From contig MFCA01000022.1 in assembly GCA_001775095.1 (NCBI GenBank), positions 2,162-66,161 of the forward strand: DNA of 64,000 bases, read 5' to 3'. Position numbers and translations under genes: made by a program. This document shows positions 1 to 60,028 of the stretch, piece after piece. Origin of the DNA: Candidatus Curtissbacteria bacterium RIFOXYA1_FULL_41_14. Its GTDB lineage: Bacteria; Patescibacteriota; Microgenomatia; Curtissbacterales; GWA2-41-24. Position 1 is the stretch's first letter; each line of letters starts with the position of its first letter. Under the pieces are notes generated by a model, which searched no databases, had not been told where the DNA came from, and saw only the letters and a list, made by a program, of their open reading frames with translations.

Positions 1-149
1 AACAGGAGAAGAGGGTAGTAGATCACCATACCATCCCCGCTTAATGATTTTCCCTCAAGAAAGTTTAGATCCTGTCGAAAATAAGTAGGGTAAATTACCA
101 GAACCGACCTCGTTGCCCTGAGTCAAAAAACGCAATTATTGAGCCGAAA

Positions 150-5715: not shown

Positions 5716-5752
5716 CTCTGAAAAGAGATCCTTCGTCGAGTCAGACTCGACT
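5716..5752. repeat. Mini hairpin repeat AGATCCTTCGTCGAGTCAGACTCGACTCAGGATGAC, palindrome GTCGAGTC-A-GACTCGAC. A second copy lies at 45611-45646.
   Basis: Two near-identical copies read directly. The same hairpin is nested inside the element at 28115-28188. Confidence 0.55.
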
Positions 5753-6289: not shown

Positions 6290-6400
6290 GATAGTCTATT
6301 GAAAACTATTATTCTTCGAACAAAGTGAGAAGTCTCACAGTTCTCGCTCCGGAGAGTACCAGCCGGTACCCTCCTACGCTCGAACAATACAATAACGGTT
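6290..6400. mobile_element. MITE-like palindromic element copy A. Core GGAGAGTACC-N-GGTAC(C)CTCC flanked by inverted TTATTCTTCGAACAA / TTGTTCGAGCG arms.
   Basis: Four copies in this window (6290-6400, 24961-25150, 34981-35095, 38245-38350) are alignable by eye in both orientations. Confidence 0.6.
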
Positions 6401-19062: not shown

Positions 19063-20148
19063 TTGTTTGGAATGAAAGTGGTACAGATAAGAAAATACGG
19101 AGGGAATGAAGTTTTGGAGGTTAGTGATATACCAAAATCAAAACCCGGTAAAAATCAGGTATTGGTTGTGGTACATGCGGCAAGCGTTAACCCCTTTGAT
19201 TTGGCTGTCCGCTCAGGAGGAATGAGAAGTGTCTCATCCTTACAATTACCGTTTACTCTGGGCGGCGATTTTGCCGGAGTTGTTTTAGAAACTGGTGAAG
19301 ATGTAGTTGATTTTAAAATTGGTGATGAAGTTTACGGCAGCGCAATTGTATTTGGCAGTGGTTCCGGAGCTTTTGCCCAAGAGGTTAGTGTGAACATCGC
19401 AAATTGCGCTTTAAAGCCTAAAGGGGTAAATATGCAAGAGGCAGCCGCGCTGCCGCTTGTCGGATCAAGCGCTGTGCAGGCGCTTGAGGAACATATCAAA
19501 TTAAAAAATAATCAAAAGATATTGATCCATGGCGGCGCAGGCGGAATCGGCCATATTGCGATCCAGCTTGCCAAATCGAAAGGCGCGTACGTTGCCGCAA
19601 CAGTAGGGGACAAAGATAGGGAATTTGTCGAAAGGCTTGGCGCGGATGAGGTGATCGACTATAAACTTCCGAGGGCTAAGAGCCCTCGGTCTTGTTCTTT
19701 AAGTTTATATGAGCGAGCAGATGACTCAAATACTCGGAAGTATGTATTCTCTCGCATTCAGCCGCGGACTGATAGTCCACGGTATTCTGCGAGCGAATAT
19801 AAAAATCAGAAATTCGAAGATATCTTATCAGATTTTGATGCAGTGTATGATACTGTCGGAGGCGATGTCACAGAAAGGTCTTTTAGAGTTTTGAAAAAGG
19901 GCGGAATACTTGTTTCTATGAAAGGACAGCCTGATGAGAAGCTAGCTCAAAAATACCAGGTGTTTGCTATCGGACAATTCACAAAAATTAACGCAGAGCA
20001 CTTGAAGCGGCTTTCAGAACTGGTCGATGCAGACGTTGTCAAAGTTCATGTCGACAAGATTTTTACACTTGATGCGATAAAAGATGCTTTCGAATATCAA
20101 GAGATCGGCCATCCCCAAGGAAAGGTTGTTGTTAAAATTGGAAATTAA
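19063..20148 (+). CDS. Zn-independent MDR-family NADPH:quinone oxidoreductase, carrying a ~45-aa in-frame insertion encoded by a repeat element
   Basis: MKVVQIRKYGGNEVLEV...VLVVVHAASVNPFD and a GxGxxG-type GGAGGIGHIAIQ. The insertion lies between VIDYKL and FEDILSDFDAVYDTVGG. Confidence 0.7.
   Translation: MFGMKVVQIRKYGGNEVLEVSDIPKSKPGKNQVLVVVHAASVNPFDLAVRSGGMRSVSSLQLPFTLGGDFAGVVLETGEDVVDFKIGDEVYGSAIVFGSGSGAFAQEVSVNIANCALKPKGVNMQEAAALPLVGSSAVQALEEHIKLKNNQKILIHGGAGGIGHIAIQLAKSKGAYVAATVGDKDREFVERLGADEVIDYKLPRAKSPRSCSLSLYERADDSNTRKYVFSRIQPRTDSPRYSASEYKNQKFEDILSDFDAVYDTVGGDVTERSFRVLKKGGILVSMKGQPDEKLAQKYQVFAIGQFTKINAEHLKRLSELVDADVVKVHVDKIFTLDAIKDAFEYQEIGHPQGKVVVKIGN
19664..19798. mobile_element. 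~135-bp palindrome-rich repeat lying in-frame inside the quinone-oxidoreductase gene. The reverse-complement copy is at 58243-58378.
   Basis: RC alignment with 58243-58378 is about 85% identical by eye. Includes the CCGAGGGCT-AAG-AGCCCTCGG and CCGYGGACT-RAT-AGTCCACGG hairpins. Confidence 0.65.
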
Positions 20149-21306: not shown

Positions 21307-21321
21307 AAGGGGTTGAAACCT

Positions 21322-21396
21322 ATATTGTTCGAGCCCTTCGTCGAAGCTCAGGGCGAGAACTGTCAGACTTCTCACTTTGTTCGAAGAAGAATAAGG
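21322..21396. mobile_element. MITE-like element variant with the same TTGTTCGAGC...TTGTTCGAAGAA arms as the other copies but a CCCTTCGTCGAAGCTCAGGGCGAG core
   Basis: Arms are shared with the copies at 34981-35095 and 24961-25150. The core belongs to the CTTCG...CTCAGG motif family. Confidence 0.5.
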
Positions 21397-24960: not shown

Positions 24961-25150
24961 TTAGCTTTGAGCTTATTAACCCTTATTGTTCGAGCCCCTC
25001 GTTGAAACTCAGGACGAGAACAACATGCTTCGCATATTGTTCGAGCACAGGAGAGTACCATCCGGTACTCTCCGTAGCGAGAACTTTCTGACTTCTCACT
25101 TTGTCGAGTCTAACTCGACTTTGTTCGAAGAATAACAAGGTTTTCAACAA
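24961..25150. mobile_element. Composite, nested MITE-like element: the palindromic GGAGAGTACC core plus a CCCCTCGTTGAAACTCAGGACGAG module and a GTCGAGTCTAACTCGAC hairpin module
   Basis: Contains the arm motifs twice (TTATTGTTCGAGC at about 24983 and 25037), with different cores between them. Confidence 0.5.
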
Positions 25151-27671: not shown

Positions 27672-28118
27672 ATGCGCTACGATTTAATGGTTGCTGTTGG
27701 TATCAAGGATGCGGACTCACTTGCCGGCAAACTTGAGAAATTTATTAAAGATGCTGCGGCGCAAGAGGTAAAAGTTGAGAAGCTGGGCAAAAAGACCTTA
27801 GCTTATCCTATTGCCAAGCAGCTAGAGGCCGAGTATTTCCTGTTTAATTTCGAGGCCCCGGCAGAGGCAATTTCTGCAATTACTCAAAACCTAAGACTTG
27901 AGCGAGAGACAATATTGAGGTATCTTTTAACAAAGGTAACAAAAGTAACAAAAGGAACAAGGGGTACAAAGGGAACAAAAGAGTTAATAGAATCAGAGGG
28001 TGAGAAAACAAAAGAAACAGGGAAAGTTGTGGTAAAGACGGTAGTAAAGGCAGGTACAAAGGTAACGAAAGGAACAAAGGGTACAAAAGGAACAAAAGTG
28101 AAAGGAAAGAAAAGTTGA
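27672..28118 (+). CDS. rpsF: 30S ribosomal protein S6 with a lysine-rich low-complexity C-terminal extension
   Basis: MRYDLMVAVGIKDAD...KTLAYPIAKQLEAEYFLFNFEA is an S6 core. The tail is KVTKGTKGTKGTK. Confidence 0.8.
   Translation: MRYDLMVAVGIKDADSLAGKLEKFIKDAAAQEVKVEKLGKKTLAYPIAKQLEAEYFLFNFEAPAEAISAITQNLRLERETILRYLLTKVTKVTKGTRGTKGTKELIESEGEKTKETGKVVVKTVVKAGTKVTKGTKGTKGTKVKGKKS
27934..28100 (+). repeat. Two blocks of tandem 9-nt repeats (GGTAACAAA / AGGAACAAA / GGGTACAAA) inside rpsF, encoding (V/G)TKG repeats
   Basis: Read directly. The repeats are multiples of 3 and in-frame. Confidence 0.55.
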
Positions 28119-28200: not shown

Positions 28201-28764
28201 ATGGCAAGTAGAGCATCGTTGAACAAAGTATTATTAATTGGAAATCTGACAAGAGATCCGGAGTTGAGATATACGCCTTCAGGCGCGGCGGTTTGTTCTT
28301 TCGGGCTGGCTACAAATAGAGTTTACGTTGCTTCTGACGGTACTAAAAAAGAGGAAGCGGAATTTATCAGGATCGTTTCCTGGAATAAACTGGCCGAGCT
28401 TTGTTCGCAGCTTCTTTCAAAAGGCAGGAAAGTTTATGTTGAAGGAAGATTGCAGACGAGAAGCTGGGAGACCCCCGATGGAATAACTAAGCAGACAACG
28501 GAAGTAGTTATTGATGACATGAGAATTCTGGATTCCCGCAGAAGTTTCGAGGAAGCCAGCACGGGGGAAAATATCCCTTATATAGAAAATACATCTGCAA
28601 GCCAGACAAAAGTCAAAGAGCCATCTTCCTTCGCTAAAGCTACGGAGGACAAGGAGAGTCTAAGGGTCAAAGAGTCAAAGGGGACAAAAGGGTCAAAAGA
28701 GCCAAAGGATTCAAATGGAGGCGGAGATGAGGATAAAATAGATTTAGACGATTTGCCATTTTAA
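28201..28764 (+). CDS. ssb: Single-stranded DNA-binding protein
   Basis: OB-fold N-terminus LNKVLLIGNLTRDPELRYTPSGAAVCSF...W. Acidic tail ending in DDLPF. Confidence 0.8.
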   Translation: MASRASLNKVLLIGNLTRDPELRYTPSGAAVCSFGLATNRVYVASDGTKKEEAEFIRIVSWNKLAELCSQLLSKGRKVYVEGRLQTRSWETPDGITKQTTEVVIDDMRILDSRRSFEEASTGENIPYIENTSASQTKVKEPSSFAKATEDKESLRVKESKGTKGSKEPKDSNGGGDEDKIDLDDLPF

Positions 28765-29016: not shown

Positions 29017-30252
29017 ATGCCTCAAAGTAAAACCCCAGCAAATCCGATCTTTAATTTCTTTTTGCAGTTTTTTGTTGTTGCCATAGTTTTTTTCGCAATC
29101 GGCTTTGCGGTAGGACAAAAAAGAGTTGAGATAGAAAAACGCGGTTTTGTACCTTCAATTTCGGTTACCAACCAGCTTCCCCCTAAAGAACAAAATCTAG
29201 ACTTTTCTCTTTTTTGGCAGGTATTTGACACCTTGCCCGAAAAGTATTTGGATAAAAGCGCGATTGATAGCCAAAAGCTTCTTTACGGGGCAATTTCCGG
29301 TATGGTGCGGTCTCTTGGCGATCCGTATACTGTCTTTTTGGATCCCGAGCAAAATGAGGAGATTCGCCAGGATCTTGCAGGCAGTTATGAAGGGGTTGGT
29401 ATTCAACTGGGTTTCAATAAAAACAAAAGGCTTGCGGTAATAGCGCCTTTGGACGGTACTCCTGCGCAGAGAGAGGGGATTTTGCCTAACGATCTGATTT
29501 TGCAGATTGACGAGCGGGACACTTTTGATTTGACATTGCCGGAAGCTGTTGACTTGATCCGCGGCCCGGCAGGGACCAAGGTTAAACTGGTTCTTTTGCG
29601 GGAAGGCGAAGATAAATCTTTCGAGAAAGAAATTGAAAGGACAAAGATAGATGTTAAAACTGTTAATGTCCAGTTTAAAGATACCCAAAGTGGCCAGGTA
29701 GCTGTAATTCGCGTCTCCAGATTTGGTGAGAATACAAATGACGAATGGGATAGGGCAGTAGAAGAAGTTTTGACAAGCGGAGCCAAAGGAGTAATTGTTG
29801 ACATGCGCAATAACCCAGGGGGACTACTGGATTCAGCCGTTCATTTGGCTTCTGAGTTTATGAGAGGGACAGTAGTTAAAGAGGAATTTTCCGATGGTTC
29901 TTCTGAGTCTTTGGGAATAGACCACGCGGGCAAGCTTTTAAAAATACCTTTGGTGGTTCTAGTTAACGGCGGTTCGGCTTCGGCTGCGGAAATTTTTGCA
30001 GGCGCAATCCAGGATGCAAAGCGCGCCGAAGTGGTCGGGGAGAAGACGTTCGGTAAGGGAACTGTTCAGGAACCGATTGAGCTATCAGGAGAAACAGCGC
30101 TTCATGTGACAATTGCCAGATGGTTGACGCCTAAAGGCAATTCGATACACGATGAGGGGATAACACCGGATGTTATAATTGAGTCTCCCGCGGAAGCGGA
30201 AGAAGGAGTAGATCCGCAATTGGAGAAGGCACTGGAGCTGGTTTTTAAATGA
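29017..30252 (+). CDS. ctpA: Carboxyl-terminal processing protease (S41), membrane-anchored, with a PDZ domain
   Basis: Catalytic-Ser region LVNGGSASAAEIFAGAIQD and the catalytic Lys in the GEKTFGKGTVQ segment. Confidence 0.75.
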   Translation: MPQSKTPANPIFNFFLQFFVVAIVFFAIGFAVGQKRVEIEKRGFVPSISVTNQLPPKEQNLDFSLFWQVFDTLPEKYLDKSAIDSQKLLYGAISGMVRSLGDPYTVFLDPEQNEEIRQDLAGSYEGVGIQLGFNKNKRLAVIAPLDGTPAQREGILPNDLILQIDERDTFDLTLPEAVDLIRGPAGTKVKLVLLREGEDKSFEKEIERTKIDVKTVNVQFKDTQSGQVAVIRVSRFGENTNDEWDRAVEEVLTSGAKGVIVDMRNNPGGLLDSAVHLASEFMRGTVVKEEFSDGSSESLGIDHAGKLLKIPLVVLVNGGSASAAEIFAGAIQDAKRAEVVGEKTFGKGTVQEPIELSGETALHVTIARWLTPKGNSIHDEGITPDVIIESPAEAEEGVDPQLEKALELVFK

Positions 30253-31367
30253 AGGTTAAAAGATTTACTTTGATCTTAATAGTTGGTGCTTTGTGGTTGG
30301 TAAGTGCCATCGCTATCGGCCGTTTTTTGGTGCAAAAACTACCTGCGCAGACTTTTGAAAATAAGAGTATTAACCAAACCCAAAAAGTTGTTAATGAAGA
30401 GTCGGTGGTTATTGATGTTGTTAAAAAAGTTTCGCCATCGGTAGTGTCGATTGCAGTTGAAAATCAACAACAATTTCTCAATCCATTTTTTAACTTCGGG
30501 CAATCAACCGAGCAGCAATCCGGGATCGGAACCGGCTTCGTAGTTTCCAAAGACGGTTTGATTTTGACCAACAAACATGTTGTTTCGGAGAGCGGAGCGA
30601 AATATACAGCGATAATTAGAGGCAGTGACGACTCAGAAAGAAAATTGCCCATTAAAAAAGTTAACCTTGATCCTTTTAACGATTTAGCCCTGGTCCAGGT
30701 AGATGCCAATGATCTATCTCCGGTCGAACTCGGCGATTCCGATCATCTGCAGGTTGGCCAATCGGTTATTGCCATTGGTAATGCTTTAGGCCGGTTTGAT
30801 AATACCGTGACAACCGGTGTTGTTTCAGCGCTGGGCAGAGCTGTCAGTCCGATTGATCCCTCAACCGGTGTTGCCGAAAGACTTGACGATCTAATCCAAA
30901 CAGATGCGGCGGTTAATCCGGGTAATTCCGGAGGCCCCTTGGTTAACAGTGCAGGTCAGGTAATCGGTGTTAATACAGCTGTCGCCAGTGCCCAGAATAT
31001 TGCTTTTGCCATCAAAATTAATGTTGCCAAAGCCTTAATTTCTGATTTTCAAAGTTCCGGAGGAAAAATCTCCAGACCCTTCTTAGGAATCCGCTATACG
31101 CATATTCCCAAAGACACAGCAATATTGAATGATGTTGTCGAAGGAGAACTGGTGCGTGAAGTTGTCTCAGGTTCGGCCGCAGATAGTGCTGGTGTTAAAG
31201 TTCGCGATATTGTCACTGAATTTGACGGTCAAAAATTAGCCGGGGATACTACTCTTAATCAAGTGATTAGAAATAAAAAGGTCGGCGACACGGTTAAGAT
31301 TAGGGTTTTTCGCGATGGAAATACTTTGGATTTTTCGGCGACTTTAGGAGAAGCACCTTCCGAATAA
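30249..31367 (+). CDS. htrA: HtrA/DegP-family trypsin-like serine protease with a PDZ domain
   Basis: Catalytic triad contexts LTNKHVV, D...ALV and GNSGGPLVN. C-terminal PDZ. Confidence 0.8.
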   Translation: MKVKRFTLILIVGALWLVSAIAIGRFLVQKLPAQTFENKSINQTQKVVNEESVVIDVVKKVSPSVVSIAVENQQQFLNPFFNFGQSTEQQSGIGTGFVVSKDGLILTNKHVVSESGAKYTAIIRGSDDSERKLPIKKVNLDPFNDLALVQVDANDLSPVELGDSDHLQVGQSVIAIGNALGRFDNTVTTGVVSALGRAVSPIDPSTGVAERLDDLIQTDAAVNPGNSGGPLVNSAGQVIGVNTAVASAQNIAFAIKINVAKALISDFQSSGGKISRPFLGIRYTHIPKDTAILNDVVEGELVREVVSGSAADSAGVKVRDIVTEFDGQKLAGDTTLNQVIRNKKVGDTVKIRVFRDGNTLDFSATLGEAPSE

Positions 31368-31403
31368 AATTCGGAATTTCAAATTTCAAATTTCAAATTT
31401 CAA

Positions 31404-31458
31404 ATCCCAGTGCACACCCCCGGGGTGCGCGTCGGCAATCGTCTATTGCTCACCCCGG
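31404..31458. repeat. Double palindrome CACACCCCCGGGGTGCG-N22-CTCACCCCGGGGGTGAGC lying between the convergent genes htrA and dedA. Likely a bidirectional terminator and a member of a mobile repeat family whose paralogue sits inside prfA.
   Basis: Palindromes read directly. Preceded by the hairpin TTCCGAATAAAATTCGGAA and (AATTTCA)x4. Confidence 0.6.
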
Positions 31459-31472
31459 GGGTGAGCTATGAA

Positions 31473-31958
31473 CTATAATACCTTCCCCAGAATATTCCCA
31501 AAGAACTTTCCAATCACGTAGTATAAATTTGCCCAGATGAAGGCAGCAATGGTTGTATAAAGCCAGAAGGTTTTGTAGGGAACTTCAAAAAGTCCGGCAA
31601 CAGCGGGCGTGACTATGCGAAGACCTGGAATGAGACGGCCGATGACAATGGTTTTTCCTCCATGTTTTTCAAACCAGCCCTCGATCTTCCTAATTTTGTC
31701 AGGTGTAAGTTTAATGTATTTACCGAATTTGAGGATTAATTTATGGCCGAAGAATCTGGCCAGAGTAAATAAAATTGTCGAGCCGCAAAGGGTAGCGGCA
31801 ACGATTGTTGCCACGAGTGCTAGATAATTGGTGCTGGGCAGGGCAGCGATAGTGGCAATAAAAATATCGCCGGGAATGGGTAGAGGAATACCTCCTTCCT
31901 CGGCAAATAGAATCAAAAATAGTCCTAAATAGGAATATTCCTGGATAAACTCAAGCAT
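31473..31958 (-). CDS. DedA/VTT-family membrane protein
   Basis: EGGIPLPIPGDIFIATIAAL and GRLIPGLR motifs. Confidence 0.7.
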   Translation of the reverse strand: MLEFIQEYSYLGLFLILFAEEGGIPLPIPGDIFIATIAALPSTNYLALVATIVAATLCGSTILFTLARFFGHKLILKFGKYIKLTPDKIRKIEGWFEKHGGKTIVIGRLIPGLRIVTPAVAGLFEVPYKTFWLYTTIAAFIWANLYYVIGKFFGNILGKVL

Positions 31959-32316: not shown

Positions 32317-32889
32317 ATGCTAGAGAATGTTGGTTACTGCAGGTTGCCAGATGACACCTATAGAAATTTAGCAGAAGGACACTGGAGTTATACAGATGAA
32401 AAGCCAGATAATCCAGTTCTAATTCTGGCGCAGGTTTTAGAACAAAGACGTTTGGGGGTTCGATTTTTAGATAGCGAGACATCTGAAGGCGATGTAGAAA
32501 TTCATGTTTCTCATCATAAGGGCGAAGTTTTGCTAGATAGAATTATCCGTACTCCGGAACTAGGTGTTCTTATAAACGTAATTCGGTTAGGTGTTTTGGA
32601 CCCCAGGATTAGATGTTGTCATCAGTGGATCGCGGACACCCAAAAGAGAATAGAGGCTCTTGCGTTGCAAAAACAAGCTGATCATAGTCAAAAGCAGGCT
32701 GATCTGATTACGTCCACTGACATAGGGCCCGGAGAGCAAAAAGCTACTTTTCTAAAAGTAGCTCAAAACGCGAGTAACGAAGCACGGAGAATATTAGGAA
32801 ACCTTGACTCTTTAACACCAGATGATATTCGCGGACTCATTGAGGCGGTTGTTGAGCGAGAAATAATTCCGGCTTCTCAGGCTGCATAA
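32317..32889 (+). CDS. Hypothetical protein, paralogue A of a tandem pair
   Basis: Shares NPVLILAQVLEQRRLGV and LDSLTPDDIRGLIEAVV with the next ORF (NPAYVLAQTLNRVGLA and LPPLRSTDIRGIIRQLV). Confidence 0.35.
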   Translation: MLENVGYCRLPDDTYRNLAEGHWSYTDEKPDNPVLILAQVLEQRRLGVRFLDSETSEGDVEIHVSHHKGEVLLDRIIRTPELGVLINVIRLGVLDPRIRCCHQWIADTQKRIEALALQKQADHSQKQADLITSTDIGPGEQKATFLKVAQNASNEARRILGNLDSLTPDDIRGLIEAVVEREIIPASQAA

Positions 32890-32957: not shown

Positions 32958-33527
32958 ATGAAAGAAGTAGTGGAGGTAGGCGCAGTTACCCCAGATAAGT
33001 TAGCTGAGATTGCCAATAATGGGATCTTCTGGAGTCAAACTCGCCAAGATAGACTTAATCCCGCTTATGTGCTAGCCCAGACTCTCAATCGAGTGGGATT
33101 AGCTGCTTGTGTTCCCGTAGCAGCAATTGATGGTCAGGGAATTTTAAGTAAGGGAATGGTTGCGATTTATGCGACTTCAGAAGGTGATTCAGTTTTAAAT
33201 AGGATTACCGATACCCCTGGTGTATATTGTGTTTTGGAACGGGCATATAATGGAGATTTAGTCCCGGATGATCCATTGTTCGAAACTTGCAGGTTGAATA
33301 GAAGAGCTAGAAGAAGAATTATGGCTTTTAATCTGCAGCGATCAGCAAGGGCATCTTGGAGATTAGGGTTGGGAGAAGAAGCAAAAGAAAGTCGATTGGT
33401 AGCCAGGAGAGTTTTAGGCAAACTTCCACCATTGAGATCAACTGATATTCGCGGAATTATTAGACAACTTGTTATAAGGGCACAGATGTCGCAACTTCCC
33501 AGGCCTCATAAACCAAAAGTGCAGTAA
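32958..33527 (+). CDS. Hypothetical protein, paralogue B of a tandem pair
   Basis: See paralogue A. Confidence 0.35.
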   Translation: MKEVVEVGAVTPDKLAEIANNGIFWSQTRQDRLNPAYVLAQTLNRVGLAACVPVAAIDGQGILSKGMVAIYATSEGDSVLNRITDTPGVYCVLERAYNGDLVPDDPLFETCRLNRRARRRIMAFNLQRSARASWRLGLGEEAKESRLVARRVLGKLPPLRSTDIRGIIRQLVIRAQMSQLPRPHKPKVQ

Positions 33528-33599: not shown

Positions 33600-34517
33600 T
33601 TATTCATGTAGGGCATCAATTATTTTATCCAATTTGCCATTCATTACTTCTTCCAGGTTGTGCCATGACTTATTAATTCTATGGTCTGTAATGCGATTCT
33701 GGGGATAATTATAAGTGCGGATTTTTTCGGAGCGGTCGCCCGTGCCCAGTTGGGCTGAGCGTTGAGAACTGAGTTGAGAGGATTGCTTTTCTTCTTCAAG
33801 TTGATAAATTTTTGAGCGCAAGATTCCCATAGCGATTTCGCGGTTTTGGCCTTGTGAACGTTCGGTTTGAGCCTTAACAACAATTCCGGTCGGTTTGTGT
33901 TTAATTCTGACGGCGGTTGAAACTTTATTAACATTTTGACCGCCGTGGCCGCCGGAACGGAAAGCTTCAAATTCAATATCGGCAGGATCAATAATAACTT
34001 GAGTCGGAGGTACTTCCGGCAAAATCGCAACTGTAGCAGTTGAGGTATGAATACGGCCGGATGACTCGGTGACAGGAACTCTTTGAACCCGGTGGACACC
34101 TGATTCATGTTGAAGTTTTTCAAAAACGTTTTTGCCGGAAATTTTAACAATTACAGTCTTGATATTTCCAAGTCCGCCTTCGGTGCAGTCCAATTCTTCA
34201 AACTGCCATCTGTTGTTGACGGCAAACTTTTGATACATTCGCAGAAGATCGGCTGCGAAAAGCCCGGCTTCATCGCCGCCGGCAGCGGAGCGGATTTCTA
34301 GAATGACAGACGAGTTTGTGGGCCCACCCCCGGGGTGCGATCCGGGTGACGTCAAGACTTCACCCCGGGGGTGAGTCAGGGCAATTTTTTCTTCTTCAAG
34401 CTTCTCTATTTCTTCCTGCGCGAGCTCGGCCATAGAAGGGTCAGCTGACACTAATTCTTGAGCTTCTTTAATCTTCTTTTCAATATTTTCAATTTGTTGT
34501 TTTTGATAATCGGTCAT
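33600..34517 (-). CDS. prfA: Peptide chain release factor 1 with an in-frame palindromic-element insertion in the N-terminal domain
   Basis: GGQ motif [14 protein letters not shown]1-type PVT tripeptide in [16 protein letters not shown]. The extra segment [21 protein letters not shown] is encoded by the element. Confidence 0.85.
34318..34384. mobile_element. Double-palindrome element (CACCCCCGGGGTG ... CACCCCGGGGGTG) inserted in-frame within prfA. Paralogue of 31404-31458.
   Basis: Same two palindromes and a similar spacer as the intergenic copy. The ORF remains open through it. Confidence 0.65.
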
Positions 34518-34980: not shown

Positions 34981-35095
34981 TGTTAAAAACCCTTATTGTT
35001 CGAGCACAGGAGAGTACCGTCCGGTACTCTCCGCAGCGAGAACTCAAACTTCTCACGTTGTTCGAAGAATAATAGTTTTCAATAGACTATCGATG
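34981..35095. mobile_element. MITE-like palindromic element copy C
   Basis: CCCTTATTGTTCGAGCACAGGAGAGTACCGTCCGGTACTCTCCGCAGCGAGAAC...TTCTCACGTTGTTCGAAGAATAA, a near-perfect RC of copy D. Confidence 0.65.
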
Positions 35096-35977: not shown

Positions 35978-36234
35978 TTTAATTTCTAATTTCTAATTTC
36001 TAAATCCTAAACAAATCAAAATGACCAAAATTCAAAACAATTTTAAGAGAAATTTATCTTTTTTGATCATTTGATATTTGAATTTTGAAATTGTTTAGAG
36101 TTTAGAATTTAGAGTTTAGAATTTTTATTAGTCATTAGGTTAATATCAGCATGAGCTTCGCTCATCTGATATATCAGTAAACTTCATTAGATTTTTATAT
36201 TAATTACAATAATTGAAGTTTAGCTGATATTAGG
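35978..36234. repeat. ~260-bp AT-rich intergenic element, copy 1, in reverse orientation and abutting the eamA start
   Basis: RC aligns by eye with 59764-60028. Contains the CTAAACTCTAAATTCTAAAC and TTAGGATTTAGAAATTAGAAATT blocks and a CTGATATATCAG-hairpin-CTGATAT module. Confidence 0.65.
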
Positions 36235-37134
36235 TCAATTTTGTATCGCTTCAATAAGTCGGTCAAGGCCGAAAGAAAAGCCGACAGCAGGAATTTGCCT
36301 TTTAGAAAACATGCCAATTAAGTTATCGTATCTGCCGCCTGAGCCAATGGATAAATTGCCATAAGACGGGATTTTTAGTTCAAAAATCGCTCCTGTGTAA
36401 TAATCAAGACCGCGGGCTAAAAGGGGGTCAAAAATATATTCCCGACTATCGATTCCCCCCTCATCAAGAATTTTAAAAAGTGATTTAAGATTATCAGTCA
36501 GCGGTTTATTTGCCATACTCTGGAGTATGGCAGTTGCTTTCGCTTTTGAAAGCCCCTTTTGCGTTAATTCGTTGACAACTCCTTCTTCGCCGATCTTTTC
36601 CAGTTTATCAAGAGCGATGACGACTTCCTTGTCAACTCCTTCAAAATTTTTGCGGTCGTTAATTTTAATTTGCGAGCTTTTAAGGCCAACTGCTTTGACA
36701 GCTTTAAGTGCGGCGGCGATAATTTTTGCGTCTTCTTCTAAACTGTCTGATCCGACAGTGTCAAAGTCCAGTTGAGTGAATTCGCGATAGCGGCCTTTTT
36801 GGGGATTTTCGCCGCGGAAAACCTGGCCGATTTGATACCGGCGAAAGGGCAGTGGGGGATTATTAGTTGCGACATAACGGGCGACTGGAACGGTCAGATC
36901 GTAGCGCAGAGCCAAGTCTCTGCCGCCGCGATCTTTAAACTCATAGATTAGTCTTTCCTCCTCACCATATTTACCTTTTAGAGTCTCGGCAAATTCGATA
37001 GTTGGTGTTTCGATTGGTGCAAAACCGAACTCTTCCAGTACATCGACGATCTGATTAATAACAGCTCGTCTTTTTTTGGCTAGATCCGGTTTAATATCGC
37101 GGAAGCCTTTTGGTGTCGGCGGGGCTTTTTGCAT
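36235..37134 (-). CDS. hisS: Histidyl-tRNA-synthetase-like catalytic core (class II motifs 1-3) lacking a C-terminal anticodon-binding domain
   Basis: RYDLTVPVARYVA, FRRYQIGQVFRGENPQKGRYREFTQ (motif 2) and GGRYDNLIGMF...AVGFSFGLDRL (motif 3). The ORF ends 5 aa after motif 3. Confidence 0.6.
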   Translation of the reverse strand: MQKAPPTPKGFRDIKPDLAKKRRAVINQIVDVLEEFGFAPIETPTIEFAETLKGKYGEEERLIYEFKDRGGRDLALRYDLTVPVARYVATNNPPLPFRRYQIGQVFRGENPQKGRYREFTQLDFDTVGSDSLEEDAKIIAAALKAVKAVGLKSSQIKINDRKNFEGVDKEVVIALDKLEKIGEEGVVNELTQKGLSKAKATAILQSMANKPLTDNLKSLFKILDEGGIDSREYIFDPLLARGLDYYTGAIFELKIPSYGNLSIGSGGRYDNLIGMFSKRQIPAVGFSFGLDRLIEAIQN

Positions 37135-38134: not shown

Positions 38135-38445
38135 AATTTCTAATTGCCTTAATTACTAAAAACCCTAAACTCTAAATTCTAAACTCCTGCCTGCCGGCAG
38201 GCAGGCTAAACAATTTCAAAATACAAAACTCAAATGATCAAAAAAGAGATAGTCTATTGAAATCCTTATTCTTCGAACAACGTGAGAAGTTTGAGTTCTC
38301 GCTGCGGAGAGTACCGTCCGGTACTCTCCTGCGCTCGAACAATATGTTTATCATCCTGTTTTGAATTTTAGATTTACCTCATTTGGATTTATTTAGGATT
38401 TAGAAATTAGAAATTAGAATTTTACTCTTTAGGTCTTTTAGCTTA
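38135..38445. repeat. AT-rich element copy 2, interrupted by a nested MITE-like copy D (38245-38350) and an extra CCTGCCTGCCGGCAGGCAGG palindrome. Lies between divergent gene starts.
   Basis: Both flanks align with copy 3. The MITE-like copy D (38245-38350) sits between them. Confidence 0.6.
38245..38350. mobile_element. MITE-like palindromic element copy D, nested inside the AT-rich element
   Basis: Reverse complement of copy C. Confidence 0.65.
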
Positions 38446-55932: not shown

Positions 55933-57219
55933 ATGAAGCTTTACGAGTTTGAAGGACATCGGATTCTTGCAAAAGTCGGGATAGAAAGCCCTTTTTTTGT
56001 TGCTTGTTCGAATTTAGACGAGGTAAAACAGGCTCGCAAACGTCTTAAATTTCCAATGGTTGCCAAAGTGCAAGTACTTTCCGGCAGGCGGGGCAAGTCT
56101 GGCGGAGTAAAATTTCTCTCAAACGAGAAACAACTTTTAACCTTTGCAAAAGAAATGTTTGGGAACAAATTTAATGGGGAGGACGTCAGATTTATAAGTT
56201 TTTCTAAAAAAATCGAGATCGAAAAAGAACTCTACCTTTCGATTGCCTACGATACTATCAAAAAAAATCCCTTTTTTCTTTTTTGTGAAGAGGGTGGCGT
56301 TGATATCGAAGAGGTAAAAAAGAGGAGTCCTGAAAAGATTGTTAGAGTAGATATTGATTCGTTGACCGGACCGACGAAAAAGAATCTGGAAGCGCTGTTT
56401 AGGCATGAACTCGTCGATTTTGCAACCCGTCTTTGGGATGCTTTTTGGCGATTTGATTGCCGTATGGTGGAGATTAACCCGTTAGCACTTGTCAGAGAAT
56501 CTGGATCTCACCCCCGGATTGAAGTCAAGACGAAATCTGGGGTGCACCTCGGGGATGGGCATAGTTATGTCGCTATTGATGCCAAAATCATCCTTGACGA
56601 TGCAGGTTTGGCAAGACATCGCGATTTGGATGTTTTGCCAAAGGGCGCAGCGAGTGCGGTACCGACAGAGAGAGAACTGGCAGCAAGAAAGGTTGATGAA
56701 GGTGACTGGCGGGGAACCGCCGGCTCTATTTTTATTGAGCTTGACGGTGACATCGCTGTTTTAGCGTCCGGCGGCGGAGCCAGTCTTTTGACAATGGATG
56801 CGCTGACTTCAGCCGGCGGTAAAGGGGCAAACTATACTGAATATTCTGGTAATCCACCGGCAGAAAAAGTTGAAAAATTAACAAAAATTACTTTGGATAG
56901 AGAAAATCTCAGCGGGTGTTTAGTTTGTGGAGCAGTAGCCAACTTTACAGACATTTATGAAACCTTAAAAGGTTTTACTGAGGGTTTAAGGCAGGTCAGA
57001 CCAAAGCCAAGTTATCCAATCGTCATCCGACGGGGAGGTCCGGGACAGGAGAAGATATACGAAGTAATTGGCAAGATTGCCCAAAAAGAAGATTACGACA
57101 TTCATCTTTTTGGGCCTGAGACACCGATATCAGTTGCGTGTCAAAAGATGGTAGAACTATCTAACGACTATAAAATTCGAAATCCGAAGTACGAAAGTAA
57201 AATCGATTCGTATGATTAG
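55933..57219 (+). CDS. Succinyl-CoA-synthetase-beta-like ATP-grasp subunit (SucC/CcsA/AclB family)
   Basis: Aligns by eye along the full length with SucC (KVQVLSGRRGKSGGVKF, VEINPLAL, LASGGGASLLTMDAL). Confidence 0.7.
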   Translation: MKLYEFEGHRILAKVGIESPFFVACSNLDEVKQARKRLKFPMVAKVQVLSGRRGKSGGVKFLSNEKQLLTFAKEMFGNKFNGEDVRFISFSKKIEIEKELYLSIAYDTIKKNPFFLFCEEGGVDIEEVKKRSPEKIVRVDIDSLTGPTKKNLEALFRHELVDFATRLWDAFWRFDCRMVEINPLALVRESGSHPRIEVKTKSGVHLGDGHSYVAIDAKIILDDAGLARHRDLDVLPKGAASAVPTERELAARKVDEGDWRGTAGSIFIELDGDIAVLASGGGASLLTMDALTSAGGKGANYTEYSGNPPAEKVEKLTKITLDRENLSGCLVCGAVANFTDIYETLKGFTEGLRQVRPKPSYPIVIRRGGPGQEKIYEVIGKIAQKEDYDIHLFGPETPISVACQKMVELSNDYKIRNPKYESKIDSYD

Positions 57220-57285
57220 TATCCATTAGTATATTGGTATCAATGCTAATATACGAATTTATGCTAATTATACAAATATGAGTAT

Positions 57286-58176
57286 ATGGCCATTTTAGTC
57301 AATAGAGATACGCGAGTTTTAATTCAAGGAGTTACAGGTAGATCAGGAACGCAAGTTACGGGCGAGCTATTGGACTATGGTATGAGAGTACTTGCAGGAG
57401 TAACTCCGGGTAAGGGCGGCCAAGAGATAGAGGCGGTGCCGGTTTTTAATTCAATCAAAGAAGCGGTTGAACAAATCGGACCAGTTGACGTCTCGATGGT
57501 TTATGTTCCGCCACTTCTTGCTTATGAAGCAGCGATTGAAGCGATTGAAGCGCAAATTCCCTTAATCCACATTTTCGCCGAGAAAATTCCGATTTTTGAT
57601 ACTTGCCGAATTCTTTCGATGGCCGCTAAAAAAAACGTCCGGGTTTTAGGACCGGCTTCAGTCGGAGCAATTTCTCCAGGCGAAGGTAAGATTGGTTCAA
57701 TCGGCGGACCCAAGCCGGAGGCAGTTTTTTCAAAAGGACCGGTCGGTGTAGTTTCCAGGTCTGGCGGGATGTGTGCCGAGCTTGGTCTTTTAATTTCAAA
57801 TGCCGGTCTTGGGCAGTCAACGGTTGTTGGTATCGGCGGGGATTTGCTTATTGGAATGGACTTATCCGATGTGCTTTTGAATTTTGAGGCAGATGCGCAA
57901 ACAAAAGTTGTGGTGGCTTTTGGTGAAGTTGGGGGTAGTCAAGAGATAGAAGCTAGTAGACTTTTGAAAAATGGCCAGGTAACTAAACCTGTAATTGTTT
58001 TTCTGGCAGGAACTTTTGCTGAAAGTTTGCCAAAAGATACCAGTCTTGGTCATGCCGGAGCTATTGTCGGTCTGGAAACAACAATGAAGGAAAAGATCAA
58101 GACGCTTAAAGATTGCGGTGCAGTTGTTGCCGAAAAATTTGAAGACATACCATTACTAATTAAAAAGTCTCTATAA
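57286..58176 (+). CDS. Succinyl-CoA-synthetase-alpha-like subunit (SucD/CcsB family) with the phosphohistidine loop
   Basis: VLIQGVTGRSGT, GVTPGKGG, SRSGGM and the active His in SLGHAGAIVG. Confidence 0.75.
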   Translation: MAILVNRDTRVLIQGVTGRSGTQVTGELLDYGMRVLAGVTPGKGGQEIEAVPVFNSIKEAVEQIGPVDVSMVYVPPLLAYEAAIEAIEAQIPLIHIFAEKIPIFDTCRILSMAAKKNVRVLGPASVGAISPGEGKIGSIGGPKPEAVFSKGPVGVVSRSGGMCAELGLLISNAGLGQSTVVGIGGDLLIGMDLSDVLLNFEADAQTKVVVAFGEVGGSQEIEASRLLKNGQVTKPVIVFLAGTFAESLPKDTSLGHAGAIVGLETTMKEKIKTLKDCGAVVAEKFEDIPLLIKKSL

Positions 58177-58242
58177 ACATCCTTATAAATATCTGAAAGC
58201 CCTGTTTAGCATTATTGATTTTGATTTTGATGATTATTTATA

Positions 58243-58378
58243 TTCGCTCGCAGAACACCGTGGACTATTAGTCCACGGATGAGGAGCGAGAGAATACATA
58301 CTTCCGAGGAGCGGGATGTTCTGCTCGCTCATGTAAACTTAAAGAACAATACCGAGGGCTCTTAGCCCTCGGAAGTTT
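58243..58378. mobile_element. Intergenic copy of the ~135-bp palindrome-rich repeat that is in-frame in the oxidoreductase gene
   Basis: RC alignment to 19664-19798. Contains perfect hairpins CCGTGGACTA/TTAGTCCACGG and CCGAGGGCTCTTAGCCCTCGG. Confidence 0.65.
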
Positions 58379-58415
58379 ATAATATTTGTATCCGTGAATT
58401 AATTCATAGATACAA

Positions 58416-58853
58416 ATGGCGCAAATTTCTAAAAGACAATTAGGCAGGAAACTTGAGTTGAAAGTTTACGATTCTTTTTGGAGAGTAATAGCAAATATTA
58501 AAAATAGAGAAGAGGTCTCTGACTTTTTTTCCGACTGTTTGACTCGAACCGAGCGGGTTTATTTGGCAAAAAGGATGGCTATCGCGGTACTTTTGTCAAA
58601 AGGTTATGATTACCGATCTATAAGTAATATGTTAAAAGTTTCCACAGGGACGGTGGGAAGAGTGGCAAGTAAAATAGAAGAGAAAGGCTGGAAACTTTTT
58701 GTCAGGAAACTCGAGGGTTTAGAAGATTGGGATAAGTTTTGGCATGATATGGAGAAACTTTTGATGAGGTCTACAGGTGCAGGGAGAAGGATGTTTTTAA
58801 GCGAGGAAGAAATCGAAGGTATCGTCAGGAAGCATAAAAGATTGTCTTCATGA
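58416..58853 (+). CDS. YerC/YecD (TrpR-like) DNA-binding protein
   Basis: LTRTERVYLAKRMAIAVLLSKGYDYRSISNMLKVSTGTVGRV resembles the Trp-repressor-like YerC fold. Confidence 0.55.
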   Translation: MAQISKRQLGRKLELKVYDSFWRVIANIKNREEVSDFFSDCLTRTERVYLAKRMAIAVLLSKGYDYRSISNMLKVSTGTVGRVASKIEEKGWKLFVRKLEGLEDWDKFWHDMEKLLMRSTGAGRRMFLSEEEIEGIVRKHKRLSS

Positions 58854-59022
58854 ATTAATTCATGAAGACAAGGTTCTTTTTGATTTTAAAAATGTAGTTT
58901 TAAGTTTCATGACTGAAAGAGAAGATCTCGATTCTGATTTTGAACTCACCAGGGGAGTTTGCTTTTCAGGGCGAAGATGGGCGAAGCTAGAATGATTAGC
59001 TGAATTTAGGTATACTTAAACC

Positions 59023-59763
59023 GTGATGCCAAAGCCGTACCGGACTTCAATAACCACCCATGCTGATGGTTCACCTCATGTATACGGTTATGATCTGACA
59101 AAGCTTGCCGGGAATACCTCTTTTGCCAAGGCTATCTACCTTATTCTTAAAGGTCAAATGCCGGATAAGGCGAGCGAGAAGATGTTTGAGGCGATGTTAA
59201 CGATCGCTATCGATCACGGTGTTGAACCTCCATCAGTTGTTGCTGCAAGAAACGTTTCTTCGGGCGGTAGTCCAATTCAGGCGGCGGTTGCGGCCGGGGT
59301 ACTGGCGCTTGGGGAATTTCACGGAGGAGCAATTGAGAAGGCGATGGAAAATTTTAAAAAATATCAGGGTGTTGGGGTTAAGATAATGGTTGATGATTTT
59401 AACAAAAATGGCGAGCGTATTTCCGGTTTCGGCCATCGACTATATGCTGACGATCCCAGAACGCAAAGGCTTTTAGAAATTGCCAAGGAACTTGGTTTTT
59501 TCGGTAAATATGTCAAATTTGCTCTTGAAGTTGAAGCAGAAATTTCCAAAGAGTCAAAAAAATTACCTCTTAATATCGACGGATGTTTTTCAGTACTGCT
59601 CTTGGAAATGGGATTCAATCCCAAGGTCGCCAACGGTATTTTTATAATTGCCAGAACACCGGGGTTGGTGGCTCACGTAGTTGAGGAAACCTTGCGTGAG
59701 AAACCGGCAAGGCGGTTAACCGAAAACGATGTGGAATATGACGGACCAAGACCGAGACGGTAA
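59023..59763 (+). CDS. Truncated citrate-synthase-family protein (citryl-CoA-lyase-like, C-terminal catalytic part only)
   Basis: Conserved citrate-synthase catalytic contexts HGGA, GFGHRLY...DPR and IARTPGLVAHVVEE. It lacks the ~150-aa N-terminal region of full citrate synthases. Confidence 0.65.
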   Translation: MMPKPYRTSITTHADGSPHVYGYDLTKLAGNTSFAKAIYLILKGQMPDKASEKMFEAMLTIAIDHGVEPPSVVAARNVSSGGSPIQAAVAAGVLALGEFHGGAIEKAMENFKKYQGVGVKIMVDDFNKNGERISGFGHRLYADDPRTQRLLEIAKELGFFGKYVKFALEVEAEISKESKKLPLNIDGCFSVLLLEMGFNPKVANGIFIIARTPGLVAHVVEETLREKPARRLTENDVEYDGPRPRR

Positions 59764-60028
59764 ATTGATCTAATATCAGCTAAACTTCAATTATTATAAT
59801 TAATATAAAAATCTAATGAAGTTTACTGATATATCAGATTCGCCGAAGGCGAAGGCTGATATTAACCTAATGACTTAACAAAATCCTAAACTCTAAATTC
59901 TAAACTCTAAACAATATCAAAATTCAAATGTTCCAAAAAATAATTAAACTTAAAATTGTTTTGAATTTTGTATTTTGATTATTTGGATTTATTTAGGATT
60001 TAGGATTTAGAAATTAGAAATTTCAAAT
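59764..60028. repeat. ~260-bp AT-rich intergenic element, copy 3, filling the whole spacer between the citrate-synthase-like gene's stop and the ruvC ATG
   Basis: Aligns with the RC of 35978-36234 and with the flanks of 38135-38445. Confidence 0.65.

Follow-up and report, generated by a model that had tools for sequence, protein, structure and literature searches.

A GC-rich inverted repeat in prfA and at two further loci

The DNA analyzed here, hereafter the window, is a stretch of 64,000 nucleotides (nt) with a GC content of ~40%, taken from contig MFCA01000022.1 (positions 2,162 to 66,161) of Candidatus Curtissbacteria bacterium RIFOXYA1_FULL_41_14. On its minus strand, at 33600-34517, lies prfA, which encodes release factor 1 (RF1, 305 aa) and contains, in frame, a copy of a small GC-rich inverted-repeat element that recurs in the window and in related DNA. 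The host gene was identified by Pfam matches to PCRF (2.6e-49) and RF-1 (2.5e-39), by the PVT and GGQ motifs in the translated open reading frame (ORF), and by alignment to solved RF1 structures at 1e-87; the protein is 99% identical to an RF1 of a Candidatus Curtissbacteria member, i.e., of the Microgenomates within the Candidate Phyla Radiation (CPR). The element encodes roughly residues T48-P66 and leaves the 305-aa ORF open, as had been stated in an earlier note that was made from the sequence alone.

In the window, the unit is 54 nt long and can be written as GC[C/A]-CACCCCCGGGGTG-N23-CACCCCGGGGGTG-AG. The prfA copy occupies 34322-34375 on the minus strand, with arms at 34325-34337 and 34361-34373 around a spacer of 23 nt. 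A second copy with the same orientation is found at 31412-31465 (minus strand; arms at 31415-31427 and 31451-31463, spacer of 23 nt) between the convergent htrA-like and dedA genes, and a repeat finder gave 76% identity between the two over 54 nt. Both had been recognized in the earlier note as a double palindrome, and their arms and 23-nt spacing were confirmed; the coordinates proposed there for the intergenic copy (31404-31458) were off by ~5-10 nt. An independent scaffold (L146), which is 98.7-100% identical, has both copies, and insert-bearing RF1 proteins with 97-99% identity are present in ENA, JGI, and NCBI assemblies.

When the 13-mer was searched with up to 2 mismatches, six matches were obtained in the window vs. 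0.46 expected, a number that was reached in none of 100 shuffles. The two matches outside the copies described above build a third, degenerate copy at 56507-56560, which has the opposite orientation (plus strand; arms at 56509-56521 and 56545-56557, 2 mismatches per arm) and lies in a gene for a protein resembling ATP-citrate lyase and the beta subunit of succinyl-CoA synthetase (hereafter SucC-like). When each arm of a pair was allowed up to 4 mismatches, three elements were obtained in the window vs. 0-1 in mononucleotide shuffles. The palindromic pattern of the window copies is not due to chance. Per 64 kb there are three copies, two in frame in unrelated genes and one intergenic; relative to their host genes, the prfA and SucC-like copies share orientation and phase and encode homologous peptides, the SucC-like one being HPRIEVKTKSGVHLGD. 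An Rfam scan of the window returned only a tRNA, and the element matches no known RNA family.

Distribution of the family and its position in genes

Public sequence data were scanned in two ways. The genome scan, for which exact arms were required and one genome per species was used, returned 19 loci, 15 of which are in metagenome-assembled genomes (MAGs) of Roizman-, Davies-, Levy-, or Curtissbacteria or of unnamed Patescibacteria, while the remaining four stand isolated in unrelated genomes (70-72% GC in two cases). Ten of the 15 Microgenomates copies are inside genes identified by Pfam, namely those for topoisomerase I (TopA, two orthologues), DinB (a Y-family polymerase), a VirD4-like ATPase, a PurL-like protein, a P-type ATPase, an epimerase, the leucyl-tRNA synthetase LeuRS, a dCTP-deaminase-like protein, and a TrxB-like fragment. 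The metagenome scan, in which the arms were relaxed at two positions, gave at least 116 loci. Related copies occur on more than 130 contigs from many projects, with Rifle-type and Hainich samples being represented, and more than 140 copies are present in the DNA that was fetched. Among 2.9 million viral contigs a single match was found, giving no sign of phage association. In these public scans, the family is found almost only in Microgenomates-type DNA.

Following the removal of duplicates and of contigs above 48% GC, 91 non-redundant copies could be evaluated; all counts derived from this census, here and below, apply among the matches listed. A copy was scored as being in an ORF if its frame stayed open through 40 or more codons to either side. 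By this criterion, 70 of the 91 copies (77%) are in long ORFs, compared to 63% of random 49-nt windows from the same contigs. The first arm is read in phase 0 (giving H[PL]RG) in 44 copies, in phase 2 (giving T[PS][GE]V) in 25, and in phase 1 only once, whereas the stop-free availability of phases 0, 1, and 2 (0.76:0.34:0.81) predicts ~28:12:30. Of the 70 ORF copies, 62 have an arm-to-arm length of 1 mod 3. These constraints on frame, stops, and phase are those expected from selection on a translated product and argue against excision or ribosomal bypass.

Length variants of the element were also observed. One of 57-58 nt carries a nested palindrome, CCTGCCTGCCGGCAGGCAGG, in its spacer and is located outside long ORFs, and another of 37 nt has a spacer of 11 nt; the variant loci are L002, L012, L017, L019 (one Patescibacteria MAG) and L012:6404, L016:6934 and 7540, L017:2768, and L062:4799. 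Contig L016 has three copies within 8 kb.

Conservation of the arms

The arms are 13 bp long (CACCYCCGRGGTG and its reverse complement) and surround a spacer of 11-32 nt, with 17, 20, and 23 nt being the commonest lengths; the element measures ~48-60 bp in total, and the arm-to-arm distance outside the window is 37-61 nt. Spacers are highly diverse, while the arms are almost always paired. The two arm positions that the search pattern left free both form Watson-Crick pairs with the opposite arm in 109 of 111 copies, vs. 44.6 expected from the marginals. Moreover, a class of 19 copies (CACCCCCGAGGTG / CACCTCGGGGGTG) has kept pairing between the arms and lost pairing within each arm. Together, the 19-copy class and the complementarity in 109/111 copies identify the conserved feature as the inverted repeat, i.e., a long hairpin or terminal inverted repeats. 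Two other descriptions of the arms were considered and rejected: as independent local palindromes, since the 19-copy class retains between-arm pairing only, and as uptake signals or single binding sites, since the arms are nearly always paired at fixed spacing and only about three elements occur per 64 kb.

As RNA, the prfA copy folds into a hairpin of -38.3 kcal/mol (z = -3.4) and the intergenic copy into one of -41.9 kcal/mol (z = -5.8). In the SucC-like copy the hairpin is gone (z = 0.07) and the ORF is intact. Within 0.97 Mb of fetched DNA, no two arms were found to enclose a long insert, in a search that was not designed for autonomous insertion sequences (IS).

Empty and filled sites in the SucC-like gene

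The SucC-like gene (55933-57219, plus strand) encodes a protein of 428 aa with the Pfam domains ATP-grasp_2 and Citrate_bind; its orthologues usually have 395-405 aa. The decayed element contributes the peptide SHPRIEVKTKSGVHLGDG, in the in-frame context NPLALVRESGSHPRIEVKTKSGVHLGDGHSYVAIDAK, and the inserted residues are ~188-207. In about 100 of 120 orthologues (57-100% identity) this site is empty and forms the tight turn EVNPLAKx-DGxxVAIDAK, also in the nearest relatives of the query (P0122-P0124). Measured on the DNA, the filled site of the query exceeds the empty one of P0123 (L142) by 60 nt. Judged from these alignments, the SucC-like insertion is a clean one. HPRG-type fills are dispersed singly on the tree of this protein, which implies at least five gains.

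The same site is filled by other insert types as well, e.g., KQNVILEGVKRPIGS...SLQND in five of the orthologues P0121-P0240, and repeat-like inserts such as GSPRSPRGEAGGEA and YSSSEERSDESRSLRGSSRLRSNNI are found at six or more other positions of the SucC-like alignment. The gene belongs to a cluster (55933-59763) that encodes ATP-grasp/citrate-binding, CoA-ligase alpha-like, Trp-repressor-like, and citrate-synthase C-terminal-domain proteins, constitutes an ATP-citrate-lyase or citryl-CoA-like gene set, and has conserved synteny in relatives.

The hypervariable linker of RF1

The RF1 proteins of 120 Curtissbacteria are conserved except for the stretch from LEEEKxxL to VILEIR, which is 15-34 residues long and contains the segment encoded by the element. 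About 20% of them have H[PL]RG..H[PL]GG in this linker. In a distance tree built from the conserved core, these carriers form at least six separated groups, and the neighbours of the query clade are without the segment. The junctions vary by lineage (KIAL|THPRG vs. ALEQSAAG|HPRG). At the DNA level, P0048 has arms identical to those of the query and a different spacer of 20 nt, P0024 has the arms CACCTCCGAGGTG / CACCTCGGAGGTG with a perfect 13-bp stem, P0058 has a single mismatch in its arms, and the arms have diverged in P0108 (CACCTTCAAGGTG / CACCTCGAAGGTG) and decayed in P0109. Linkers of other types consist of low-complexity or palindrome-like peptides, e.g., VNREP..TVNHDSS (with nested variants), TTNYQLPTTN, ITQNSLVPRSPGEVGSLTSNHTT, and SEARQS..SRNDG (P0006-P0120). 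In P0006, the nearest RF1 without the segment (L023:10001-10933), the linker contains another GC hairpin, CCCGACGAAGCCTTGGCGAAGTCGGG, nested within CACTCAG heptamer repeats. Judged from the aligned sequences, the RF1 linker is a hot spot into which the present family and others have inserted time and again, and several element families seem to share it.

In the earlier note, the segment was taken as sequence that is extra compared to canonical RF1 and situated in the N-terminal domain. The site, however, is the hypervariable linker between domains 1 and 2, so that there is no clean empty prfA allele. Thermotoga RF1 is without the element segment, and compared to it the query has a net 8 residues more in the segment matching LLFLLSPEASDK. 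The Curtissbacteria RF1 proteins are short (~300-320 aa), and the whole group is without the beginning of domain 1, as judged from the Pfam PCRF match, which starts at model position 42, and from the solved RF1s, which align only from about residue 33-57.

Spacer subfamilies at the two gene sites

Two spacer classes occur at these two sites. The 49-nt class comprises the RF1 and SucC-like copies of the query together with RF1 P0109 and SucC P0129, the last of which is inverted, so that this subfamily is found in both orientations at the SucC-like site. The 46-nt class comprises RF1 P0048, P0024, and P0058 and SucC P0132. Identity between the spacers of the two classes is at the random level. 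The presence of two subfamilies at the same two sites in different lineages, and of both orientations, indicates repeated independent insertion rather than ancestral protein sequence. According to the earlier note, presence of the segment in orthologous RF1s of unrelated lineages would mark it as ancestral. Other Curtissbacteria RF1s do carry the segment, but the subfamilies, the junctions, and the patchy tree indicate that it was inserted recurrently.

Predicted structure of the inserted segments

AlphaFold (AF2) models were built from the orthologue alignments. In RF1, residues 50-67 are predicted, with a predicted local distance difference test score (pLDDT) below 50, as a coil between the last helix of domain 1 (27-48) and the first strand of domain 2 (70-78). 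In the SucC-like protein, residues 191-207 (pLDDT below 50) are placed between the strands 176-188 and 210-214. In both models the elements on either side are well predicted. The structure modelling that had been recommended for RF1 thus located the insertion in a predicted low-confidence loop. In both proteins, the models suggest that the element is most likely a tolerated, disordered surface loop.

The intergenic copy and its surroundings

The intergenic copy is contained in a 105-nt spacer between the convergent genes for an htrA-like protein (30249-31367, plus strand; Trypsin_2 and PDZ) and a DedA/VTT protein (31473-31958, minus strand). A role as bidirectional terminator, which had been envisaged for this copy, is not borne out: a terminator scan of 31412-31465 on both strands found no terminator-like site and no T tract, and in a relative (L023) dedA and htrA abut, so that the spacer itself is absent and not conserved. 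It was also considered whether the prfA and intergenic copies, which are 2.9 kb apart, form a composite structure; this was rejected, as relatives have the same gene order without the copies.

A TTCAAAT heptamer, repeated four times (31370-31405), directly adjoins the intergenic copy. Other AT-rich heptamer tandem repeats, of the TTTAGAA/ATTTCTA types, are located at 35981-36150, 38154-38423, and 59762-60028, and such repeats make long, similar inverted or direct repeats between distant spacers (e.g., 36164-36241 vs. 59762-59839, 97%). Between dedA and prfA there are two tandem paralogous ORFs (32317-32889 and 32958-33527; 190 and 189 aa) with no Pfam match, which share a 61-nt stretch at 70%; relatives have one small unannotated ORF there.

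A second in-frame repeat and other repeats of the window

An unrelated repeat family of ~145 nt was detected by repeat comparison. One copy (19660-19803, plus strand) is in frame in a gene for a zinc-type dehydrogenase (19063-20148), and an inverted copy with 88% identity is intergenic (58237-58381, minus strand). The repeat, which contains the internal hairpins CCGAGGGCTAAGAGCCCTCGG and CCGCGGACTGATAGTCCACGG, adds ~47 residues (LPRAKSPRSCSLSLYERADDSNTRKYVFSRIQPRTDSPRYSASEYK) to the dehydrogenase and splits its Pfam ADH_zinc_N match between residues 201 and 245. With this second family, insertion of repeats under preservation of the ORF is seen to be a general phenomenon of this genome.

Further palindromic repeat families, with GTTCGAGCACAGGAGAGTACCGTCCGGTACTCTCCGCAGCGAGAAC and a 22-nt hairpin (CTTCGTCGAGTCAGACTCGACT) as examples, occur in intergenic spacers only. 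Intergenic palindromes are located at 6290-6389, 21317-21393, 24978-25120, 34994-35091, and 38266-38360, and also at 5731, 28124, 28144, and 45616. A tandem repeat with a 9-nt period (ACAAAGGTA-like) is present in the 3' parts of the genes for ribosomal protein S6 and SSB (27921-28114 and 28675-28715), giving these proteins Lys/Asn/Gly-rich low-complexity tails.

Interpretation and alternative explanations

It is considered very probable that the prfA segment belongs to a family of very small GC-rich inverted-repeat elements that has multiplied in Microgenomates, and that it was inserted in frame, is tolerated as a loop, and behaves much like the Rickettsia palindromic elements (RPEs). The best-supported description of the element is that of a small, non-autonomous, mobile inverted repeat that resembles RPEs in behaviour but is not an RPE. 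In-frame insertion of this kind had been suggested in the earlier note, and it gains from the third, in-frame copy of the window, from the empty orthologous sites of the SucC-like gene, and from the copies in other Microgenomates genes. Copies would enter genes as readily as spacers, and those that persist would be the ones that are free of stop codons, preserve the frame, and are located in permissive loops at the surface, where they would be translated as a Pro/Gly-rich, probably disordered loop of ~16-20 residues. The insert may be translated and near-neutral, and the element may spread by trans-mobilization through an enzyme that recognizes the inverted arms or the hairpin.

Several observations weigh against this explanation. 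The census is biased to copies with perfect arms, and its metagenome contigs are without taxonomic assignment. The trees behind the independent gains are neighbour-joining distance trees without bootstrap values. No empty prfA allele was found among the 120 Curtissbacteria RF1s examined, every one of which has some variable linker, and translation is deduced only from the constraints on frame and phase. A search for target-site duplications of 2-5 nt gave no signal above the level of re-paired flanks (offsets of 0-5 from the arms, the termini being approximate). No transposase or other mobilizing gene was identified in the 64 kb of the source genome that were covered. Lastly, no presence/absence polymorphism was seen in one near-identical strain (L146), in which both copies are present and for which exact boundaries were not obtained.

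Two alternatives deny that the prfA segment is an inserted element at all. It could be the ancestral linker of Curtissbacteria RF1, with its likeness to the intergenic copy being due to chance GC-rich palindromy. Such an origin would agree with the presence of H[PL]RG..H[PL]GG in ~20% of the 120 RF1s and with the variable linker of 15-34 residues, without a clean empty site, in all of them. However, it does not account for the recurrence of the 54-nt unit elsewhere in the window, once between genes and once within an unrelated gene, nor for the patchy distribution of carriers on the tree, where the nearest neighbours of the query are without the segment. In addition, the junctions differ (KIAL|THPRG vs. 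ALEQSAAG|HPRG), the spacers belong to two unrelated subfamilies, Thermotoga RF1 is without the segment, and what is conserved is the complementarity of the arm DNA, read in two phases, and not the peptide. An ancestral linker is very unlikely and largely refuted. An assembly or sequencing artefact, e.g., a chimeric join or a palindrome-induced misassembly, is conceivable in that the window is metagenome-derived and GC-rich palindromes can cause assembly errors, but it has next to no probability given the insert-bearing RF1s with 97-99% identity from ENA, JGI, and NCBI assemblies, the two copies on the independent scaffold L146 at 98.7-100% identity, and the related copies in more than 130 contigs from many projects.

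Other alternatives accept the hairpin and differ in what they make of it. It may be a cis-acting element selected in place, as an mRNA structure that pauses ribosomes at a domain boundary or regulates expression or as a DNA site for a dimeric host protein, with the intergenic copy serving as terminator. The hairpins are indeed highly stable, at -38 kcal/mol (z = -3.4) and -42 kcal/mol (z = -5.8), perfect 13-bp arms are retained in genes that have diverged to ~65-70% protein identity, the arms are complementary in 109/111 copies, and the element turns up repeatedly at one and the same linker between domains or beta-hairpin turn. Nonetheless, the SucC-like copy is structureless (z = 0.07) and its ORF has been kept, most orthologues of both genes do without the element, unrelated repeat families fill the same sites, and host genes and positions are heterogeneous. 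As the intergenic copy has no T tract and its spacer is absent in a relative, and as arm complementarity is equally expected of the terminal inverted repeats of a mobile element, selection in place is improbable. Less probable still is that the element is not translated and is either removed from the message or bypassed, as in the case of the 'byp' GC clusters of Magnusiomyces mitochondria or the gap in phage T4 gene 60. The form of the insert, a GC-rich hairpin in an AT-rich genome, is like that of mitochondrial GC clusters and byps (PMC8811140), and intervening sequences are a known trait of the rRNA and tRNA genes of CPR genomes (PMC13011429). Bypassing would lift the constraint on frame, stops, and phase, but every gene-embedded copy examined keeps the frame, 62 of 70 ORF copies have arms spaced by 1 mod 3, one copy in 70 is read in the stop-prone phase 1 vs. 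~12 expected, and decayed copies such as the SucC-like one stay open though the hairpin is lost.

A wider proposal, which is possible but doubtful, is that Microgenomates harbour ultra-small inverted repeats mainly in coding sequence, where they are enriched compared to random positions and repeatedly hit the same inter-domain linkers and beta-turns of essential proteins (e.g., RF1, TopA, LeuRS). The repeats would then be general generators of loop insertions in genomes that are otherwise streamlined, possibly acting as ribosome-pausing hairpins at domain boundaries, and their recurrence would reflect targeting or function and not only survivorship.

Comparison with known repeat systems

In agreement with the earlier note, which knew of no description for this kind of genome, a literature search returned nothing linking such elements to CPR, Patescibacteria, or Microgenomates, although subscription journals were mostly not covered and absence is therefore unproven. 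If the small mobile inverted repeat is correctly recognized, the family charts, by natural means, which loops of essential proteins tolerate insertions, and it would explain many odd length variants and low-complexity segments of CPR protein families. It also calls for caution among annotators and structure predictors, as such segments would be repeat-derived. The spread of an element without an obvious transposase becomes testable in a large, well-sampled metagenome set.

Among known systems, the yeast mitochondrial GC clusters and the Magnusiomyces byps resemble the element in being tens of bp long, GC-rich, palindromic, mobile in an AT-rich genome, variable in sequence, and in some cases (var1) in frame (PMC8811140). 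However, they are organellar, mostly intergenic, and bounded by AG/TAG terminal repeats, and byps are bypassed, whereas the present element is found in bacterial chromosomes, is mostly intragenic, has no detected terminal direct repeats, and shows frame and phase constraints that favour translation. Bacterial MITEs (miniature transposable elements with inverted repeats), such as the 107-bp form of Correia/NEMIS, ERIC, and YPAL (PMC2229807), share the terminal inverted repeats, the stable RNA stem-loop, and an occasional in-frame ORF fusion; they are 100-200 bp long, usually have a TA target duplication, and are mainly intergenic, in contrast to the element, which is two to four times smaller, shows no detectable duplication, and is mainly intragenic. 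Repetitive extragenic palindromic (REP) sequences and their hairpin-forming pairs (REPINs) are similar with respect to the two short inverted arms, the less conserved spacer, the hairpin, and the lack of a detected target-site duplication, but they are extragenic by definition, while the element is mostly intragenic and in frame, and their conserved 5' tetranucleotide was not seen in it. Nor was a gene for their mobilizing enzyme, a REP-associated tyrosine transposase (RAYT), found in the 64 kb available. By analogy, the lack of a detected target duplication and the hairpin-centred conservation may bring the element closer to systems of the REP/REPIN-RAYT type, or of the IS200/IS605 type, than to classical MITEs; this is a resemblance.

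To our knowledge, there is essentially one textbook example of in-frame selfish palindromes in bacterial chromosomes, that of Rickettsia. The RPEs (Ogata et al. 2000) are palindromes found in frame in housekeeping genes and in spacers (PMC2229807, PMC10969869). The element and the RPEs have in common that they are dispersed palindromic or inverted repeats, present in spacers and in frame in housekeeping genes, that they give rise to a recurring peptide tolerated as a loop, and that their hosts have reduced genomes; in both, no mobilizing enzyme has been identified and target-site duplication is uncertain. They differ in length, as RPEs measure 105-146 bp with terminal repeats of ~12 bp and the element ~48-60 bp (54 bp in the window). 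The arms of the element are GC-rich in a genome of 40% GC, its host phylum is another (Microgenomates/CPR), and there is no apparent sequence relation, RPE consensus sequences not having been compared. In R. conorii, 19 of 44 RPE copies (~43%) are in ORFs, as opposed to 77% for the element among the matches listed, which is no less than for random windows. Furthermore, the element uses two reading phases and both orientations, and the same loop has been hit repeatedly and independently. By size and host lineage, the element falls outside the RPEs with their families RPE-1..10 of Rickettsia. An unrelated and much smaller family that does the same across the CPR superphylum, in RF1, topoisomerase I, and LeuRS, would make in-frame palindrome insertion a recurrent outcome in reduced genomes.

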